A stretch of DNA of 20,116 bases from a virus, in UHGV virus genome UHGV-1705587; one strand, given 5' to 3'. The position numbers were made by a program, and so were the translations under genes. Below are positions 4,405 to 13,877 of this stretch, piece by piece (the first letter of the stretch is position 1; each line of letters begins with the position of its first letter). Below the pieces are notes generated by a model. The model was not told the origin of the DNA. It ran no database searches and saw only the letters and a list, made by a program, of their open reading frames with translations.

Positions 4405-5637
4405 ATGAAATATTTTTTCAATACCCGGCTGGGGGAAACCCGTTATCAGCTGGCTGACGGCTCGCTGCTGTGCAAAGACGTGCCGATAGGACGAACAGGT
4501 AAGCAGCTCTATGGTGCTGATGACCTGCCAAAACTGAAACCCGATAAGTTCGGTGAAATAGTCGTAACGCGCTCTCCTGAGCAGGTATTCCATCCGGCCA
4601 CGCTCGCCTCATTCGAAGGGATGAGCATCACGATCCTGCATCCTGAAGATGAAAACGGAAATGTGCGGCTGGTCAACCCCGAGAACTGGAAAGAGCTTGC
4701 GGTCGGGCATCTTCAGAATGTCCGGCGCGGGACGGGTGTGCAGTCTGATTTGATGCTGGCTGACCTTATCGTCAAAGACGAAAACGCCATTCAGCTGATC
4801 GAAGATGGCCTGCGCGAAGTGTCGTGTGGCTATGACGCGGAATATAAGCAGACTGAGCCGGGTAAGGCTGAGCAGGTTGATATTACCGGAAACCATGTGG
4901 CTCTTGTCCCTAAAGGCAGAGCCGGAAATCGTTGTGCAATTGGAGACAGAGACACAATGGCAAATCAAAAGAAAAGCTGGTGGACCCGCATGCGCACGGC
5001 CATCAAAACGGGTGACGCTGACACCATGAACGAACTGCTGGACTCTGCGCCAGCGGCGGTAACGGGTGACGAAGGGGATCTGCCGAGCGGCGTTAACCTC
5101 AACATTAACCTTTCACCGCAGCAACCATTGCCGGACAAAAAGCCGGAAATGGGCGGAGAGCCAACCGGCGACGGCGAGGACGATATCAAAACCTTGCTCA
5201 AAGCCCTGCTGGCTAAGCTCGAAGGAACTGCGACGGGCGATAACGACAATAAGCCTGACGGCAAAGATAACAAAGACCCTACCTGCGACGGTGAGGACGA
5301 CGAAGAGGAAACCACGATTACCGGTGACGCTGCTTATCGTGCCGAAGTTATCGTTCCGGGTATCGATCTGAGCCGTAAGGTGAAACCGACCGCGTTCAAA
5401 CGTGATGTGCTGTCCGCCGCTGACAAAACACTGGTTCGCCAGGTTGTCGGTGATGCAGATATCCGCAAATTGCCCAAGCAATCGGTCGATATGGCGTTTA
5501 ACGCCGTGTCTGAGATTGCCAAAGGGCGAAACACCCGCAGCACCACGGGCGATGCACAACGTCCAAATATGGGCATGACCAGCATCGCTTCCCTGAACAA
5601 ACAAAACGCCGACTTCTGGTCTAACCGCAAAGGATAA
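4405..5637 (+). CDS. Putative head scaffolding / prohead protease-like protein (DUF2213-like by position and composition)
   Basis: 410-aa ORF between the morphogenesis and capsid genes. Contains a long acidic low-complexity segment (GDGEDDIKTLLKALLAKLEGTATGDNDNKPDGKDNKDPTCDGEDDEEETT) typical of scaffolding proteins. Family name is from memory of similar gene clusters, not a search. Confidence 0.5.
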   Translation: MKYFFNTRLGETRYQLADGSLLCKDVPIGRTGKQLYGADDLPKLKPDKFGEIVVTRSPEQVFHPATLASFEGMSITILHPEDENGNVRLVNPENWKELAVGHLQNVRRGTGVQSDLMLADLIVKDENAIQLIEDGLREVSCGYDAEYKQTEPGKAEQVDITGNHVALVPKGRAGNRCAIGDRDTMANQKKSWWTRMRTAIKTGDADTMNELLDSAPAAVTGDEGDLPSGVNLNINLSPQQPLPDKKPEMGGEPTGDGEDDIKTLLKALLAKLEGTATGDNDNKPDGKDNKDPTCDGEDDEEETTITGDAAYRAEVIVPGIDLSRKVKPTAFKRDVLSAADKTLVRQVVGDADIRKLPKQSVDMAFNAVSEIAKGRNTRSTTGDAQRPNMGMTSIASLNKQNADFWSNRKG

Positions 5638-5641
5638 TCCA

Positions 5642-6145
5642 ATGACTGCATATCTGTACCGGATGCCTGTTGGCATTGCCGGGGCTATCTCTCGCCCGCA
5701 GGACTTAACCGTCGAACCGGTGATCCTTAAATCCGCTAACGCCTTCGCTGCCTATGGTCTGGCTGGCAAATACGACGCTGACGGCTTTTTCGTGCCGCTG
5801 GCGGACGGTGACACCGCCGACAAGGTGAAGGGGATCTACGTTCGTCCGTATCCGACCACATCACAGCCAGACATGGTTCGCCAGGTGGGGACGGATAAGA
5901 ACTTCCCGGGTGACGCCATGAAGCGTGGCTACATGACCGTTAATCTCGGTTCTGATTTTGATGCCAGCACCATCAAAAAAGGCGACCCGGTATACGTTGT
6001 CGTCTCCACTGATGAATCCATCAAAGTGCCGCTGGGCGGCTTCATGTCCACGTCCGTCAGTGGCAAAAACGTGGCGCTGACCAACGCCGAATTCACAGGG
6101 GCCGGTGACGCTAACGGCAATGCAGAAATCTCCTGGAAGATTTAA
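5642..6145 (+). CDS. Hypothetical head protein (possible decoration/cement protein)
   Basis: 167-aa ORF with AGGA RBS, immediately upstream of the major capsid gene. No recognisable motif; called on position and coding quality only. Confidence 0.45.
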   Translation: MTAYLYRMPVGIAGAISRPQDLTVEPVILKSANAFAAYGLAGKYDADGFFVPLADGDTADKVKGIYVRPYPTTSQPDMVRQVGTDKNFPGDAMKRGYMTVNLGSDFDASTIKKGDPVYVVVSTDESIKVPLGGFMSTSVSGKNVALTNAEFTGAGDANGNAEISWKI

Positions 6146-6156
6146 GGAACAGACGA

Positions 6157-7098
6157 ATGATTACTTTTGATCAGGCAACCGTTGATAGCTCTGGTGCCTT
6201 TCTCATCGGGGAGCTGGAGCGACTCGACCAGACGCTGAACCTGCCGCTGGTGGGTTACACCTGGACCCGCGATATTCAGCTGCGTGAAGACGTTTCTATC
6301 GCAGATGACATTTCCAGCTGGACTAACACCAGTTTTGGCGCTGCTGGTACTGGCGCAAATCCGAATGGTAAAAACTGGGTAGGCAAAGACTCCACCGCTA
6401 TTGCTGGCGTGAACGTGGATATCAGCAAAGACGGCAATCCACTGAACCTCTGGGGTATGGAACTGGGCTGGACCGTTGTAGAGCTGGCAGCAGCTCAGCA
6501 GGTAGGTCGCCCGATTGATACCCAGAAGTACGACGGGATGCAGCTCAAATGGCAGATGGATAACGACGAGCAGGTTTACATTGGCGATGATGCGCTCGGC
6601 CTGAAAGGGCTGGCAAACCTTGTCGGTGTGACGCTGAACAATGCGCCGAAGACCTGGGCGAACTCAACCAACGACGAGATCCTCGATAGCGTGAACAGCA
6701 TTCTGTCTAATGCCTGGGCAGCATCCGGTTATTCCATCGTGCCTTCTGATCTGCGCATTCCGCCAGAGCAGTATTCACTGCTGGCGAGCCGTAAGGTTTC
6801 CGAAGCGGGTAACCAGTCACTGCTGACCTATCTGGCTGTGAACACTATCGCTTTCCACCAGAACGGCGTTCCGCTTGAAATCAAAGCGGTCAAATGGCTG
6901 AAAGGGCGTGGGGTTGGCGGTAAAGACCGTATGATCGCCTACACCAACGACAAGAAATACGTGCGCTATCCGCTGGTGCCGTTGCAGAGCGTTCCTGTCC
7001 AGTATCGCGGTCTGTACCAGATTGCGACCTACTACGGCAAGCTCGGTGCGGTTGAGCCAGTGTACAAAGAAACCCTGTCCTACGTGGACGGTATCTGA
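6157..7098 (+). CDS. Major capsid protein
   Basis: 313-aa ORF with AGGAA RBS, located after the scaffold-like gene and followed by tandem stops (TGATAA) and a GC stem with GAAA tetraloop (7111-7122). Position and size fit a major capsid protein of the DUF2184-type head module; assignment is by synteny and recollection. Confidence 0.6.
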   Translation: MITFDQATVDSSGAFLIGELERLDQTLNLPLVGYTWTRDIQLREDVSIADDISSWTNTSFGAAGTGANPNGKNWVGKDSTAIAGVNVDISKDGNPLNLWGMELGWTVVELAAAQQVGRPIDTQKYDGMQLKWQMDNDEQVYIGDDALGLKGLANLVGVTLNNAPKTWANSTNDEILDSVNSILSNAWAASGYSIVPSDLRIPPEQYSLLASRKVSEAGNQSLLTYLAVNTIAFHQNGVPLEIKAVKWLKGRGVGGKDRMIAYTNDKKYVRYPLVPLQSVPVQYRGLYQIATYYGKLGAVEPVYKETLSYVDGI

Positions 7099-7139
7099 TA
7101 ACCAGAACGACCCCGAAAGGGGCCAGAAGGAAACTGAAA

Positions 7140-7550
7140 ATGGCGAAAGAAAAGCTGGTTACCATCCATGTTCACACCCCGTTTACGCTGACGCTCGGCG
7201 ATCAGTCAAAAAGGGAGTTTGGCCGGGGACGGCATAACGTACCGGAAGAGGTCGCGTTGCACTGGTTCACCCAGGCGCACTCTGAGCTTTCCGAAAGCGT
7301 GATTAGCGACACCGATGATCTGCAACCCATTATCGACAGCCTGCAAGCGCAGATTGCCGACAAAGATAAGCAGATTGCCGACAAAGATAAGCAGATTGTC
7401 GATAAAGATCAGCTGATTGCCGATCTGAAAGAAGCGCTGCTCAAGCTGCAAGAGCAGAACGACAGCCTGCAAGCGCAGATTGCTGCCGCCCAGACTGGCG
7501 GTAATGGGGCGAAAGATGCCAAAGAATCAAAGCCTGCCAACAGTAAGTGA
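7140..7550 (+). CDS. Coiled-coil protein with tandem heptad repeats (possible capsid or neck accessory protein)
   Basis: 136-aa ORF with AGGAA RBS. Central region encodes [28 protein letters not shown] from four 21-nt tandem repeats, flanked by two copies of DSLQAQIA. Lysine-rich C-terminus. Confidence 0.55.
7350..7433 (+). repeat. Tandem 21-bp repeat, about 4 copies with the last two degenerate, flanked by a 23-bp direct repeat at 7335-7357 and 7461-7483
   Basis: cagattgccgacaaagataag occurs at 7350-7370 and 7371-7391, then cagattgtcgataaagatcag (7392-7412) and ctgattgccgatctgaaagaa (7413-7433). gacagcctgcaagcgcagattgc occurs identically at 7335-7357 and 7461-7483. Confidence 0.85.
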
Positions 7551-7923
7551 TTTTCGCCGCGACTTCCCGCAGTTTGCTGACCCTGCCAAATATCCCGAAG
7601 CGCAAATCGAGTTTCGTCTGAATCTGGCCGATGTGCTGCTAAGCGAAAAGGTCACCGGCAAAAAGTTGTTTCCGTATTTTGCCGAGTTGTTCGTTGCGCA
7701 CTACATGACGCTTTGGGCGGCAGATAGCCGGGCGATGCTGGTTGGCGGCCCGGGCGGTTCAACCAATGGTGTTCAGTCCTCTAAGTCCGTTGACAAGGTA
7801 AGCGTCAGCTATGACACCAGCGCGACGCTAAACCCTGACGCAGGCTTCTGGAATAACACCCGATATGGCGCTGAATTTTATCAGCTGATCACGATGTTCG
7901 GTGCAGGCGGTCGCCAGCTATGA
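7516..7923 (+). CDS. Hypothetical head-tail connector / head completion protein
   Basis: ORF open from 7480; ATG at 7516 (or 7504) is the more likely start, overlapping the upstream gene end. Position just after the capsid module. Family (possibly DUF4054-like) is a guess from synteny. Confidence 0.45.
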
Positions 7924-9391: not shown

Positions 9392-10552
9392 ATGACGCAG
9401 GGCTTACCTGTATCCAACGTTGTAAACGTTGATGTGATCATCTCGCCGAAAGCGGCTACTGGTCGTAACTTCGGCGCACTGCTGATCCTCGGTTCTTCCA
9501 CTGTCATTCCGGTGCAGGAGCGCGTTCGCCTTTATGCGTCCGTTGATGACATTGGCGAGGACTTCGGAGTCGACAGCCCGGAATATGAAGCGGCGCAGGT
9601 TTTCTTCAGCCAGTCGCCGAAGCCGACGCAGGTTTATGTTGGCCGCTGGGCGAAGACGCTGACCTCTTCCGAAGGTGGAAGCGTGGAAACCATCGTGCAA
9701 GCTGTTAATGCCTGCCTGCAGTATACCAACTGGTATGGGCTGGTTGTCGCTGATGATGTTGCTGATGGCGATGATGTGCTTGATGCTGACGACGTGATTG
9801 AGGTTGCTAAACTCATCGAAGCGTCCAGCCTGAGCCGCATTTTCGGGGTAACGTCAGCCGACGCTGAGATCATCAGCACGACTTCGACGACCGATGTTGC
9901 GTCTAAATTAAAGGCCGGTAAGTATTCCCGTACCTTTATTCAATATTCCACCAGCAGCCCTTATGCGGCGGTTTCAGCTTTCGGTCGCGCGTTTACTGTC
10001 AATTTCAACGGCAGCAATACCACCATTACCCTGAAATTCAAACAGGAACCGAGCGTAACCTACGAAACGCTGACGGTAGGACAGGCGGCGGCTGTGGATG
10101 CGAAGAATGCGAACGTGTTCGTGTACTACGCCAACGACACGGCGATCCTGCAACAGGGTGTCATGGCGAACGGTGACTTCTTCGACGAGCGCCACGGGCT
10201 CGACTGGTTGCAGAACTACGTTCAGACCAACCTCTATAACCTGCTTTACACCAGCACCACCAAAATTCCGCAGACTGATGCCGGTGTGACCCGTCTGCTT
10301 TCCAACGTTGAACAGTCCATGGATCAGTCCGTCACGAACGGTCTGGTAGCGGCTGGCGTGTGGAATGGTGGCCCTATCGGACAGCTGAATTCCGGCGATA
10401 CGCTGACCAAAGGCTATTACGTGTATGCGCAACCGCTGTCCGAACAGGCGCAGGCCGACCGCGAAGCGCGCAAAGCACCGTTAATCCAGGTGGCCTGTAA
10501 GCTGGCTGGCGCAGTTCATTATGCCGATGTGCAGATCAACGTGGTTCGCTAA
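9392..10552 (+). CDS. Tail sheath protein (contractile tail)
   Basis: 386-aa ORF with GGAG RBS, directly upstream of a 146-aa tube-like gene, a chaperone and the tape measure gene: the sheath-tube-chaperone-tape measure order of contractile-tail phages (P2 FI-FII-E-T-like). Confidence 0.6.
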
Positions 10553-11432: not shown

Positions 11433-11620
11433 CCTTCAATAGCCTGCCGGGCGGTGAAGATTTTATTCTTCGTCCGGCGCTTGCCTTCCATATTGACCAG
11501 AAAGACCTTAACAGCGGTGCGGTAGACCTCTGCCGCATCGCGCTTCTCAATGACTACCTCGACATGCGCGAGGATAACGACGCCCGGGTAGATAAATGGA
11601 GAGCGGACAATGAGCGGTAA
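11387..11620 (+). CDS. Predicted -1 frameshift extension of the tail assembly chaperone (P2 E+E'-like); fused product spans 11007-11620
   Basis: The -1 frame is open with no stop from the slippery site T_TTT_TTG (11381-11387) to TAA at 11618-11620, filling the gap and overlapping the tape measure start by 11 nt. Predicted extension: ARTPYQRDAHPASGITFNSLPGGEDFILRPALAFHIDQKDLNSGAVDLCRIALLNDYLDMREDNDARVDKWRADNER. Fused product about 204 aa. Confidence 0.55.
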   Translation, partial: ARTPYQRDAHPASGITFNSLPGGEDFILRPALAFHIDQKDLNSGAVDLCRIALLNDYLDMREDNDARVDKWRADNER

Positions 11621-13877
11621 CGCAGATACGATTAAAGATTTCCTTGTTTCGCTGGGATTCGATATCGATCAGGCTGGCGCTAATAAGTTTGAAGCCGTGC
11701 TGAAAGGCGTTACAGCTAACGTTCTGAAGGTCGGCGCGGTGGTGGAAGGCGCAGCGCTGAGCATTGTCGGATTTACCACTCAGATCGCGAACGGTCTGGA
11801 TAAAATTTACTGGGCATCCCAGCGGACGGGGGCCAGTGTCCAGGGCATCAAAGCGCTGGGATACGCCGCATCGCAAACCGGTGCCAGCGCCGAGTCGGCT
11901 ATGTCCTCCCTCGAAGGGCTGGCCGGTTTCATGCGTAGCAATCCGGGGGCGGAAGGCTTCCTGAACCGTCTTGGTGTCCAGACCCGAGATGCCAGCGGAA
12001 AGATGCGTGATACTGCGGCCATCTTTACTGGCGTTGGGCAAAAGCTCAACAACATGCCGTATTACCGCGCGAAGCAATACGCGCAGATGCTTGGCATCGA
12101 TGAAAACACGCTGATGGCGATGCGGCGCGGCATGAATGGCTTTACCGCCGATTACCAGTCTATGCTGCAAAAGACAGGGTTCAACGCTGATAAGGCGGCT
12201 GTGCAGTCCAATAAATTCATGACGTCCATGCGCGGGCTTACGTCGCTGTTCGGCATTATGCGGGACAAGATCGGCTCAAACCTCGCTGGTGGTCTTGCTG
12301 GTTCGCTGGACAGCCTGCGGCGGCGCATCCTCGACAACTTCCCGAAGATTGAAGAGACGCTGACCAGAGTTATTAAAGGCGTGATCTGGCTTGCGAACGC
12401 CTTCACGCGAATGGCGTGGCGGCTCATACAGGGCGCTGGCTCTGTCATTGACTGGTGGAAGCGTCTTGACGATGGCAGTAAAAATCTGCTGAAAATATTC
12501 GGTGCTCTACTTGTCGCATGGCGTCTGCTTAATTCTGCGTTCCTGAAATCCCCGATTGGAATTATCACCACGCTGATTCTGGCGATCGGATTACTCTATG
12601 ACGATTATCAGACGTGGAAAGAAGGCGGTAAAAGCCTGATTGACTGGTCCAAGTGGGAGCCTGCAATAGAAAAGGCGAAAAAGGCAATTCTCTGGCTGCG
12701 CGATAAGCTTCTGGGGCTGAAAGATTCTGTTGGTGGATGGCAGAACTCGCTGGAAATTTTGGCTACTTTCATCGCTGGGGTATGGGTAACAAAAGTATTG
12801 GGAGCATTCGCAAAAATATCCGGTCTTCCGATACCTCCATGGCTTAAATTATGGGGAGCGTATGCTGGTTACCTGGTTTCAGATCGTGAAAACATAAAAG
12901 CCAGTGCTAAATCATCTTTGGACTATACCAAAAGGAACATTGGTGATGCTCTTGCTACGGTTGGCATCAAAACCGACCTTGGGCGAAAAGATGTTAGCGA
13001 GGTAAGAGAATGGCCCGCATGGATGGATTGGCTGCATGGTGGCCCAGGTAAGATTATTCGTCAGGCGCAAAGCAATGGCGTCGTTTATGGCGATAATGTT
13101 CAGCCTGACATTCCCGGGGCGGAACAGCATGTTCGTAGTAATGAAATTGCCCCGCATGAAAGAGATGAAATAAAAAACCGTCAGCAGGCTGCTAATGGTT
13201 ATCTTGAAAAAATCTCAGACGGGATTGCCAAAATCGGTAATTTATTTTTCTCCCCGGCTGGAGCTGCTGAAATCTCTCCAAATATATCGGGTGACCCCTC
13301 CCAGTTTGCGCAATCAGTCAAACGTCCACAGGCCACAGCCCAGGGCAAAGTATTGCTCGACTGGATGGGGCCAATGTTCAATAAACTTGAGTCGCTTTAT
13401 CAACTTCCAGCTGGTCTATTGAAAAGTGTGGCGATAACCGAGTCAGGTGGTAACCAGTTCGCCATGTCCGGCGCGGGTGCAAAGGGGCTGTTCCAGTTCA
13501 TGGATGGCACGGCGCGAGACATGGGCCTGCGTGGTAACGATGTGTTCGACCCGGAAAAGTCAGCTCAGGCAGCCGCTAAGTACCTTAGCCAGCTATTGCG
13601 GCAGAACGGCGGAGACCTTAGCAAAGCACTTGCATCATATAACTGGGGAATCGGGAACGTTCAACGTTATGGAATGGGGCTAATGCCGCAGGAAACGCGC
13701 AATTACATTCCGAAAGTAATGAGCAATATGCCCACCAGCGCCCCGGTGATTCAGCAGGAAACGAACATTAACATCCACGGCGTTTCCGATCCTCGCGAAG
13801 CTGCCCGTTTGACTGTTGACCGTCAAAAGGGTGTGAATTCACAGTTAACCCAGCAACTCCCCGCAGGACCGAGATAA
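11610..13877 (+). CDS. Tail tape measure protein with C-terminal lytic transglycosylase (SLT) domain
   Basis: 755-aa ORF with GGAGAG RBS, after the chaperone/frameshift region. Two hydrophobic segments (LLKIFGALLVAWRLLNSAFLKSPIGIITTLILAIGLLY and LEILATFIAGVWVTKVLGAFAKI). C-terminal region has SLT catalytic signatures ESGGN...GAKGLFQF...YNWG (about nt 13390-13700). Confidence 0.8.
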   Translation: MSGNADTIKDFLVSLGFDIDQAGANKFEAVLKGVTANVLKVGAVVEGAALSIVGFTTQIANGLDKIYWASQRTGASVQGIKALGYAASQTGASAESAMSSLEGLAGFMRSNPGAEGFLNRLGVQTRDASGKMRDTAAIFTGVGQKLNNMPYYRAKQYAQMLGIDENTLMAMRRGMNGFTADYQSMLQKTGFNADKAAVQSNKFMTSMRGLTSLFGIMRDKIGSNLAGGLAGSLDSLRRRILDNFPKIEETLTRVIKGVIWLANAFTRMAWRLIQGAGSVIDWWKRLDDGSKNLLKIFGALLVAWRLLNSAFLKSPIGIITTLILAIGLLYDDYQTWKEGGKSLIDWSKWEPAIEKAKKAILWLRDKLLGLKDSVGGWQNSLEILATFIAGVWVTKVLGAFAKISGLPIPPWLKLWGAYAGYLVSDRENIKASAKSSLDYTKRNIGDALATVGIKTDLGRKDVSEVREWPAWMDWLHGGPGKIIRQAQSNGVVYGDNVQPDIPGAEQHVRSNEIAPHERDEIKNRQQAANGYLEKISDGIAKIGNLFFSPAGAAEISPNISGDPSQFAQSVKRPQATAQGKVLLDWMGPMFNKLESLYQLPAGLLKSVAITESGGNQFAMSGAGAKGLFQFMDGTARDMGLRGNDVFDPEKSAQAAAKYLSQLLRQNGGDLSKALASYNWGIGNVQRYGMGLMPQETRNYIPKVMSNMPTSAPVIQQETNINIHGVSDPREAARLTVDRQKGVNSQLTQQLPAGPR

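Follow-up and report, generated by a model that had tools for sequence, protein, structure and literature searches.

The DNA analysed in this study, referred to as the window, is a 20,116-nt stretch of the virus genome UHGV-1705587, and it represents the late region of a temperate, SEN34-like myophage. Its genes run in the order terminase, portal, Mu-F-like protein, DUF2213 protease/scaffold, cement protein, PF09950 major capsid protein, the gene studied here, DUF4054 adaptor, neck proteins, sheath, tube, tape measure, and baseplate (Table 1). The protein encoded by the studied gene matched the NCBIfam family NF047914, "STY1053 family phage-associated protein", over residues 8-49 (74.2 bits, cut-off 40), and it matched phrog_2619, to which no function is assigned, over its full length (E=2.8e-44). 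The same ORF is included in the RefSeq annotation of E. coli AW1.7, in which the same head module is joined to lambdoid early genes and the prophage adjoins dacD. The closest deposited phages are Citrobacter phage Omnitron (92% amino-acid identity) and Salmonella phage SEN34 (76%; genus Brunovirus), the latter a plaque-forming phage with myovirus morphology (PMC5261728). The slot between the PF09950 capsid gene and the DUF4054 adaptor gene was likewise held by this gene in E. coli, Citrobacter, Enterobacter, metagenome, Izhakiella, and Arsenophonus loci as well as in phages SEN34 and vB_EcoM-683R1, and the gene order was conserved even at the loci of divergent STY1053-family members. The role of the E217 gp27-type protein as a head-to-tail adaptor has been described in the E217 and Pa193 structures (PMC10329688, PMC11456595).

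Table 1. Features of the window in and around the STY1053-family gene.
Feature	Position	Strand	Remarks
DUF2213 protease/scaffold gene	4405-5637		
Cement protein gene	5642-6145		
Major capsid protein gene (PF09950)	6157-7098	+	Pfam E=6.8e-82; phrog_264; upstream of the STY1053 gene
GNRA-tetraloop hairpin	7108-7125	+	Between capsid stop (7098) and STY1053 start (7140); outside the repeats
STY1053-family phage-associated protein gene (136 aa)	7140-7550	+	ORF; NF047914; phrog_2619; RefSeq annotation of AW1.7
N-terminal domain coding region	7140-7300	+	About residues 1-53; four beta-strands, then a helix
Left bracket copy, 24-nt direct repeat	7334-7357	+	Encodes DSLQAQIA; end point of large deletions and duplications
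21-nt tandem array	7349-7432	+	One heptad QI[AV]DKD[KQ] per unit
Right bracket copy, 24-nt direct repeat	7460-7483	+	Exact match to the left copy
Gly/Lys-rich C-terminal tail coding region	7484-7547	+	Predicted disordered; last 35 nt shared with the adaptor gene
DUF4054 / E217 gp27-type head-to-tail adaptor gene	7516-7923	+	PF13262 E=3e-27; AW1.7 annotation
Sheath gene	9392-10552		

Three further features of this neighbourhood were recorded. The end of the STY1053 gene overlaps the start of the adaptor gene by 35 nt (7516-7550) in another frame, and the same overlap was present in all alleles examined, the 73-aa and 94-aa forms included; this arrangement suggests translational coupling, together with a double coding constraint on the Lys-rich tail. 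Directly 3' of the capsid gene, a GGCCCC-GNRA-GGGGCC hairpin was found in 13 related loci, with GAAA, GTAA, or GCAA loops. The window copy carries one stem mismatch (G-to-A at the outer stem base) and is not followed by a T-run on the + strand, and a divergent relative (L022) has a different hairpin in the same gap. The hairpin may serve as an mRNA stabiliser, or as an attenuator that fixes how strongly the capsid gene is expressed relative to the genes after it. The tape-measure ORF (11610-13877, 755 aa) is mosaic relative to that of AW1.7, with 79-87% identity at the ends and an unaligned middle of about 680 nt; the AW1.7 gene is the shorter, making this a second length-variable gene of the module.

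Two nested repeat systems lie inside the STY1053 gene. Tandem Repeats Finder reported a single array at 7349-7423 with a period of 21, 3.6 copies, 90% matches, and a score of 122. The initial annotation had described four 21-bp tandem copies, two identical and two degenerate. The identical pair was recovered, with no differences between units 1 and 2 (7349-7369 and 7370-7390), and unit 3 (7391-7411) has 3 mismatches; the count of four is slightly generous, because the half-degenerate unit 4 (7412-7432) keeps 11 of the first 12 nt and diverges thereafter. The second system is a pair of bracket repeats, CGACAGCCTGCAAGCGCAGATTGC, which had been given as 23 bp from position 7335 with a spacing of 126 bp. 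Their identity and spacing proved correct (exact copies, starts 126 nt apart), while the true length is 24 nt and the true start 7334. The first tandem unit opens with GCAGATTGC, the letters with which the left bracket copy closes, and the repeats are therefore truly nested. Neither pattern occurred in any of 100 dinucleotide-preserving shuffles of the window, with up to 3 mismatches allowed.

Both repeats are in frame within the ORF on the + strand and encode the peptide DSLQAQI ... (ADKDKQI)x2 VDKDQLI ... DSLQAQI, so that translation reproduced the annotated QIADKDK heptads and the twofold DSLQAQIA. Two independently produced complete assemblies of E. coli AW1.7 both contain a 411-nt gene 99% identical to that of the window, which rules out an assembly artefact as the source of the window allele. 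We also observed a 15-nt inverted repeat with 87% complementarity (7330-7344, TTATCGACAGCCTGC; 7391-7405, GCAGATTGTCGATAA), which has one arm at the left bracket repeat and the other in tandem unit 3 and is probably a by-product of ATCGACA/TGTCGAT codons.

We then searched 5.8 billion proteins and obtained 143 homologues, of which 101 full-length ones were parsed by counting the heptads between the first and last LQxQI motifs. The results showed 0, 4, 5, 6, 7, and 8 heptads in 15, 35, 31, 13, 3, and 4 proteins, corresponding to lengths of 94, 122, 129, 136, 143, and 150 aa, respectively. A 164-aa allele with 10 heptads, in which a five-heptad unit is duplicated, was found in the complete genome of E. 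coli EC2001. All differences among these lengths are multiples of 7 residues. Alignment and unit counting had been proposed as the check on the repeats, and with 0-10 heptads an identical repeat number in all homologues is clearly excluded. The extra heptads are copies of KD[KQ][QL]I[AVI]D, and the 8-heptad forms carry a duplication of the whole four-heptad unit. The distant homologues parsed (Rahnella, Edwardsiella, and Symbiopectobacterium among them) have four heptads, with the single exception of P0109, which has eight in two diverged copies; four heptads were therefore taken as the ancestral state. Other repeat-mediated variants were a duplication of LQEQNDS (P0064) and a 7-aa deletion between DDLQ and DSLQ (P0047).

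Two side observations concern individual alleles. Three sequences (P0105, P0106, and L018, the latter at 2501-2845 of Apirhabdus apintestini CP138906) carry a frameshift inside the repeats, reading ...QIVDKD|RADCRSER..., and the shifted frame stops just upstream of the adaptor start; these could be real pseudogenes or sequencing errors. E. coli EC2001 (L014, NZ_CP133811) harbours two related prophages, one with the 164-aa allele (RHN94_RS16365) and one with a 129-aa allele (P0233, RHN94_19190), and such a two-allele genome is an opportunity for exchange between prophages.

At the DNA level, the gene was aligned across 12 loci in a 21-nt register. The 94-aa alleles contained a single copy of GACAGCCTGCAAGCGCAGATTGC and nothing between the bracket positions, which is an exact repeat-to-repeat deletion. 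The 150-aa allele of Citrobacter braakii (CP183064) is an exact 84-nt tandem duplication and the 164-aa allele an exact 105-nt tandem duplication, both bounded by the bracket repeat. Because there were 0 differences between their 84- or 105-nt copies, these large duplications are recent. The 129-, 136-, and 143-aa alleles are single 21-nt units apart, the 143-aa allele having one unit more than the window. In the ancestral four-heptad allele, a 9-nt microhomology, GATTGCCGA, recurs 21 nt apart and is likely the seed of the first heptad duplication. Thus, as anticipated from the repeats, natural homologues have expanded and contracted in frame, by way of the 21-nt units as well as of the 126-nt bracket; copy number varies among homologous genes and the junctions lie at unit boundaries, as in a coding VNTR or minisatellite.

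The two bracket copies were compared over the 21-nt core of their DSLQxQI-coding sequence in nine lineages. The copies differed on average at 1.9 positions within a genome, compared with 3.6 between genomes. Both copies carried GCG to GTG in Enterobacter and GCG to ACG in L028 and L029. Changes were likewise paired in Rahnella, with GCG to TCG plus a synonymous AGC to AGT, and in Dryocola, with AGC to AAC plus synonymous CAA to CAG and ATT to ATC. In another lineage (L030), the copies showed 8 mostly synonymous differences, indicating that protein constraint alone does not require identity of the DNA. Such concerted change, synonymous sites included, carries the signature of continuing exchange between the bracket copies, which may proceed by gene conversion or by cycles of duplication and deletion. 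It lends independent support to the recombinational part of the idea put forward in the initial annotation.

These data bear on whether the length classes are still being generated. Among E. coli complete genomes, 103 of 5,426 carried the gene. There were 41 close matches, 30 of 390 nt, 8 of 369 nt, 2 of 411 nt (both AW1.7), and 1 of 495 nt; the other 62 carriers matched the first 242 nt of the query only, and the one of them examined (L004) proved to be a more diverged 369-nt allele. Among the best 80 IMG/VR loci, 75 encoded 129 aa, 3 encoded 136 aa, and 2 encoded 122 aa. Alleles of equal length were not uniform inside: those of 143 aa showed three different unit orders and those of 136 aa at least four arrangements, indicating that same-length alleles arose separately. 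We also found five different large duplications on different unit sequences, and at least five flank signatures specific to a lineage were associated with 94-aa deletions, each of them having a relative without the deletion. Many homologue pairs had 0 amino-acid differences in the flanks and yet unequal numbers of heptads.

One reading of the length classes is that each arose once, long ago, and has since been inherited or shuffled as a static lineage marker, with the window repeats inactive. The great stability of the 4- and 5-heptad alleles is consistent with this, as the 129-aa class comprises 79 loci over flank divergences of up to 18%, and prophage mosaicism could carry a few old alleles onto many backgrounds. 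However, a single origin is excluded by the different unit orders of same-length alleles, the large duplications are exact in their DNA, the deletion alleles retain lineage-specific residues on both sides, and concerted evolution of the bracket copies requires ongoing exchange. We therefore consider static inheritance very unlikely.

The tempo of change was estimated on a neighbour-joining tree of 1.4 kb of flanking DNA from 95 loci, with a length of 0.97 substitutions per site. The tree required 14 length changes, where the minimum possible is 6 and the mean after shuffling 15.8, or, relative to tree length, about 14.5 changes in length per substitution per site; as the flanks are mosaic and alleles moved by recombination inflate event counts, these parsimony figures lean upwards. 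The DNA-flank count was used in place of an earlier parsimony count on amino-acid flanks (35 steps, 85 taxa), which was regarded as inflated because its tree was unresolved. For many alleles the source is a short-read or metagenome assembly, in which repeats can be mis-assembled; all length classes were also found in isolate or complete genomes, except for the 129- and 136-aa alleles with unusual unit orders. No near-identical prophages with unequal lengths were found among the 95 loci, the closest such pair being 1.5% apart in the flanks. From the assembled sequences, length changes are recurrent but slow.

This tempo is relevant to the possibility that the gene is a hypermutable contingency locus, in which repeat number switches at high frequency within a population. 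Two identical 21-nt units and exact 24-nt repeats are classic substrates for slippage, and the length states are scattered almost randomly over the flank tree. Nevertheless, the near-identical units number only 2-3, and the rate given above is far below that of contingency loci. In large 90%-identity clusters (155-308 member sequences), the sampled STY1053 members were uniform in length within each cluster; some of these member sequences lie on hundreds of contigs, and some from Salmonella on more than 1000. The two AW1.7 assemblies agreed in length, as did the sister strains CX08 and CX12. The uniformity of clonal clusters and the 1.5% distance of the closest different-length pair indicate that this is not a contingency locus. 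Moreover, the events of 21, 84, 105, or 126 nt are all multiples of 3; with a unit of 21 nt, on/off frameshifting is not possible, and phase variation was ruled out because all events stay in frame. We regard high-frequency switching as extremely improbable. As an aside, the 90%-identity cluster of one 129-aa protein (P0034) listed three DUF2213 proteins of 309-413 aa among its members, which looks like a database clustering artefact rather than biology.

Next, we considered what the repeats encode. The AlphaFold2 model of the protein has four parts: an N-terminal domain, a low-confidence acidic linker, a long helix, and a disordered Gly/Lys-rich tail. The N-terminal domain was modelled with strands at residues 6-35 and a helix at 36-48/52 (core pLDDT about 88-92), and its invariant residues include H12, T13, P14, F15, H41, W42, F43, and H47. 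Residues 55-120 were predicted in the monomer as a single uninterrupted helix (pLDDT >92), and the tail (residues 125-136) had a pLDDT below 50. One heptad register fitted all alleles, with I/L/N at position a and L/K/A at position d; in the window allele, core hydrophobic residues fill 12 of the 17 a/d positions, and in the inserted heptads position a is Ile and position d is Lys. The helical prediction and the register, unbroken in every allele, support the helical, heptad-repeat character that had been proposed for this segment; the DKDK-rich inserted heptads might form a single stable alpha-helix as an alternative to a bundle. The predicted helix spans about 16 residues (about 2.4 nm) in the 94-aa form, 58 (about 8.7 nm) in the window, and 86 (about 12.9 nm) in the 164-aa form. 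As all changes come in multiples of 21 nt, none of them disturbs the reading frame, the phase of the heptads, the C-terminal tail, or the overlapping adaptor start.

We further assessed the distribution of these forms among phages. Plaque-forming SEN34 has the 122-aa form and phage Omnitron the 129-aa form. A 73-aa form without the coil occupies the same gene slot in vB_EcoM-683R1 and in E. coli and Shigella prophages, and the 94- and 150-aa alleles sit among intact head genes. The 94-aa alleles were found with both major capsid gene types, indicating that length is not coupled to capsid type. Since the coil-less 73-aa and 94-aa forms keep the gene slot, the helix appears to be a dispensable, length-tolerant spacer and not a strict ruler. 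A HMMER scan with the N-terminal domain against 1.84 billion representatives yielded 98 clusters (50% identity) of proteins of 50-223 aa, and this domain was the only part common to all. It lay nearly always at or near the N-terminus and was present in two copies in three members. The segment after the domain was very variable (coiled coil, Ala/Glu/Lys-rich, Pro-rich, or absent), and most members, distant ones included, had a Lys-rich C-terminus. In P0131, P0136, and P0137 (171-221 aa), the domain occurs twice in tandem with a Pro/Asp/Glu-rich linker between the copies.

The helix might alternatively be an exposed stalk or a ruler, for instance in a head or neck fibre, whose length is tuned by selection, either diversifying or specific to the host, and whose repeats would be retained for the useful variants that they generate. 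Fibre-like proteins have a similar architecture, with an N-terminal anchor domain and then a coiled coil, seven length classes coexist among closely related prophages, and several lineages keep the bracket repeats identical in their DNA, so that the locus would stay mutable. On the other hand, concerted evolution is an expected by-product of unequal exchange without selection, forms without the coil are common and also occur in deposited phage genomes, length is uncoupled from capsid gene type, and one or two length classes dominate large populations. In addition, Lys at the core d position of the added heptads looks like tolerated filler and not like an optimised stalk. Adaptive tuning of length is thus, in our judgement, unlikely.

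Taken together, the region is very probably a coding minisatellite located within the helical spacer of a small protein of the phage head module, and its length may drift largely neutrally. The starting point was four heptads between two DSLQxQI copies, as in the distant genera examined (e.g., Rahnella and Edwardsiella). In the Escherichia/Citrobacter/Salmonella/Enterobacter lineage, one heptad was then duplicated, creating the 21-nt tandem repeat, and further duplication of different units in different lineages gave 5, 6, and 7 heptads. With the bracket copies as end points, deletion of the interval yielded the 94-aa form and duplication of the whole unit the 150- and 164-aa forms. Judging from the junctions, the short direct repeats may have produced these events by slippage during replication or by exchanging unequally. 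The helix would act as a length-tolerant spacer of about 2.4 to 13 nm, if fully helical, between an N-terminal docking domain and a basic tail. The tolerance of so many lengths would fit largely neutral drift rather than programmed switching, although most carriers are prophages that may or may not be viable.

Length polymorphism of coding VNTRs in coiled coils is known from streptococcal M proteins and the stalks of trimeric autotransporter adhesins. As in these proteins, the in-frame units of the STY1053 gene are whole structural periods and copy number differs among close relatives; slippage or unequal recombination and the homogenisation of repeats by concerted evolution are likewise shared. 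In contrast, the STY1053 protein is a phage head-module protein of 94-164 aa, rather than an adhesin of the bacterial surface, with only 0-3 extra units. In E. coli, Lovett and colleagues have reportedly described deletions and duplications that arise without RecA where short direct repeats slip or misalign during replication. The present locus resembles those systems in having repeats of 21-24 nt that lie 21-126 nt apart and in showing precise deletions and tandem duplications, and it differs from them in that the mechanism is read from the junctions alone. Phage recombination functions (NinB and RusA are annotated in the AW1.7 relative) could contribute instead. The locus adds a further case of a well-known phenomenon, from a protein family that has not been studied before, and reveals no new mechanism.

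The function of the protein was approached through its genomic position. A literature search for STY1053 returned no mention, the structure papers on E217, Pa193, and XM1 describe no homologue, and a profile search of PDB sequences gave no match. Searches of Pfam, PHROGs, and NCBIfam for a function returned only coiled-coil noise and "unknown function" families. A phage scaffolding protein (PF06810 / phrog_194) was considered and rejected, as PF06810 scored 18.1 bits against a cut-off of 35 and aligned over the coiled coil only; in the related phage Pa193, it is the DUF2213 protein, a neighbour in the module, that is the putative scaffold (PMC11456595). In position, the STY1053 protein is comparable to the lambda DNA-packaging chaperone gpFI (132 aa), which is also small and encoded directly after the capsid gene and before a head-tail joining gene. 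Both appear to consist of one small alpha/beta domain and a helical or charged flexible segment, with the domain order reversed in the STY1053 protein. The B. subtilis prophage protein YqbF is listed beside gpFI as a close known system. At the sequence level, Pfam Packaging_FI gave no match to the window protein or 84 family members at E up to 10, and hhalign against lambda FI gave a probability of 1.8%, with no sequence or profile similarity.

The same capsid-adaptor slot is filled by Pa193 gp27 and PB1 gp25 in the homologous head module of Pbunaviruses, which has the order DUF2213 protein, cement protein, PF09950 capsid, slot ORF, and DUF4054 adaptor. These proteins are positional analogues only, as PB1 gp25 showed no similarity to the STY1053 family (hhalign probability 0.05%). 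Pa193 gp27 was detected in virions by LC-MS and has no location in the cryo-EM maps (PMC11456595). By this positional comparison, it is possible, though tentative, that the STY1053 protein is an accessory head-assembly or DNA-packaging factor in the position of lambda gpFI, or a protein loosely attached to the head or neck. More speculatively, and with rather low probability, STY1053 proteins may make up a widespread and so far unrecognised class of accessory proteins of the head module, with a function equivalent to that of lambda gpFI or of a filament tethered to the capsid or neck. In such a class, the at least 98 clusters may always combine an N-terminal domain of about 45 aa with a freely variable spacer and a Lys-rich tail.

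In conclusion, the prediction made from the raw sequence was fully borne out by the comparative data, as both repeat systems have made the predicted in-frame alleles, and the bracket repeats provide a textbook case of concerted evolution over just 21-24 nt. For the annotation of related phages, this means that differences in STY1053 length between similar prophages are not to be taken as errors or pseudogenes, and the locus could be used to type SEN34-like prophages of Enterobacteriaceae. Because the central helix is deleted or tripled in nature, the protein is unlikely to be a strict ruler, which constrains the possible roles of this common head-module protein. If the family does form an accessory class, the length of the spacer would be free to evolve, and the series of 0-10 heptads found in nature would be a ready-made experiment on tether length versus packaging or assembly.
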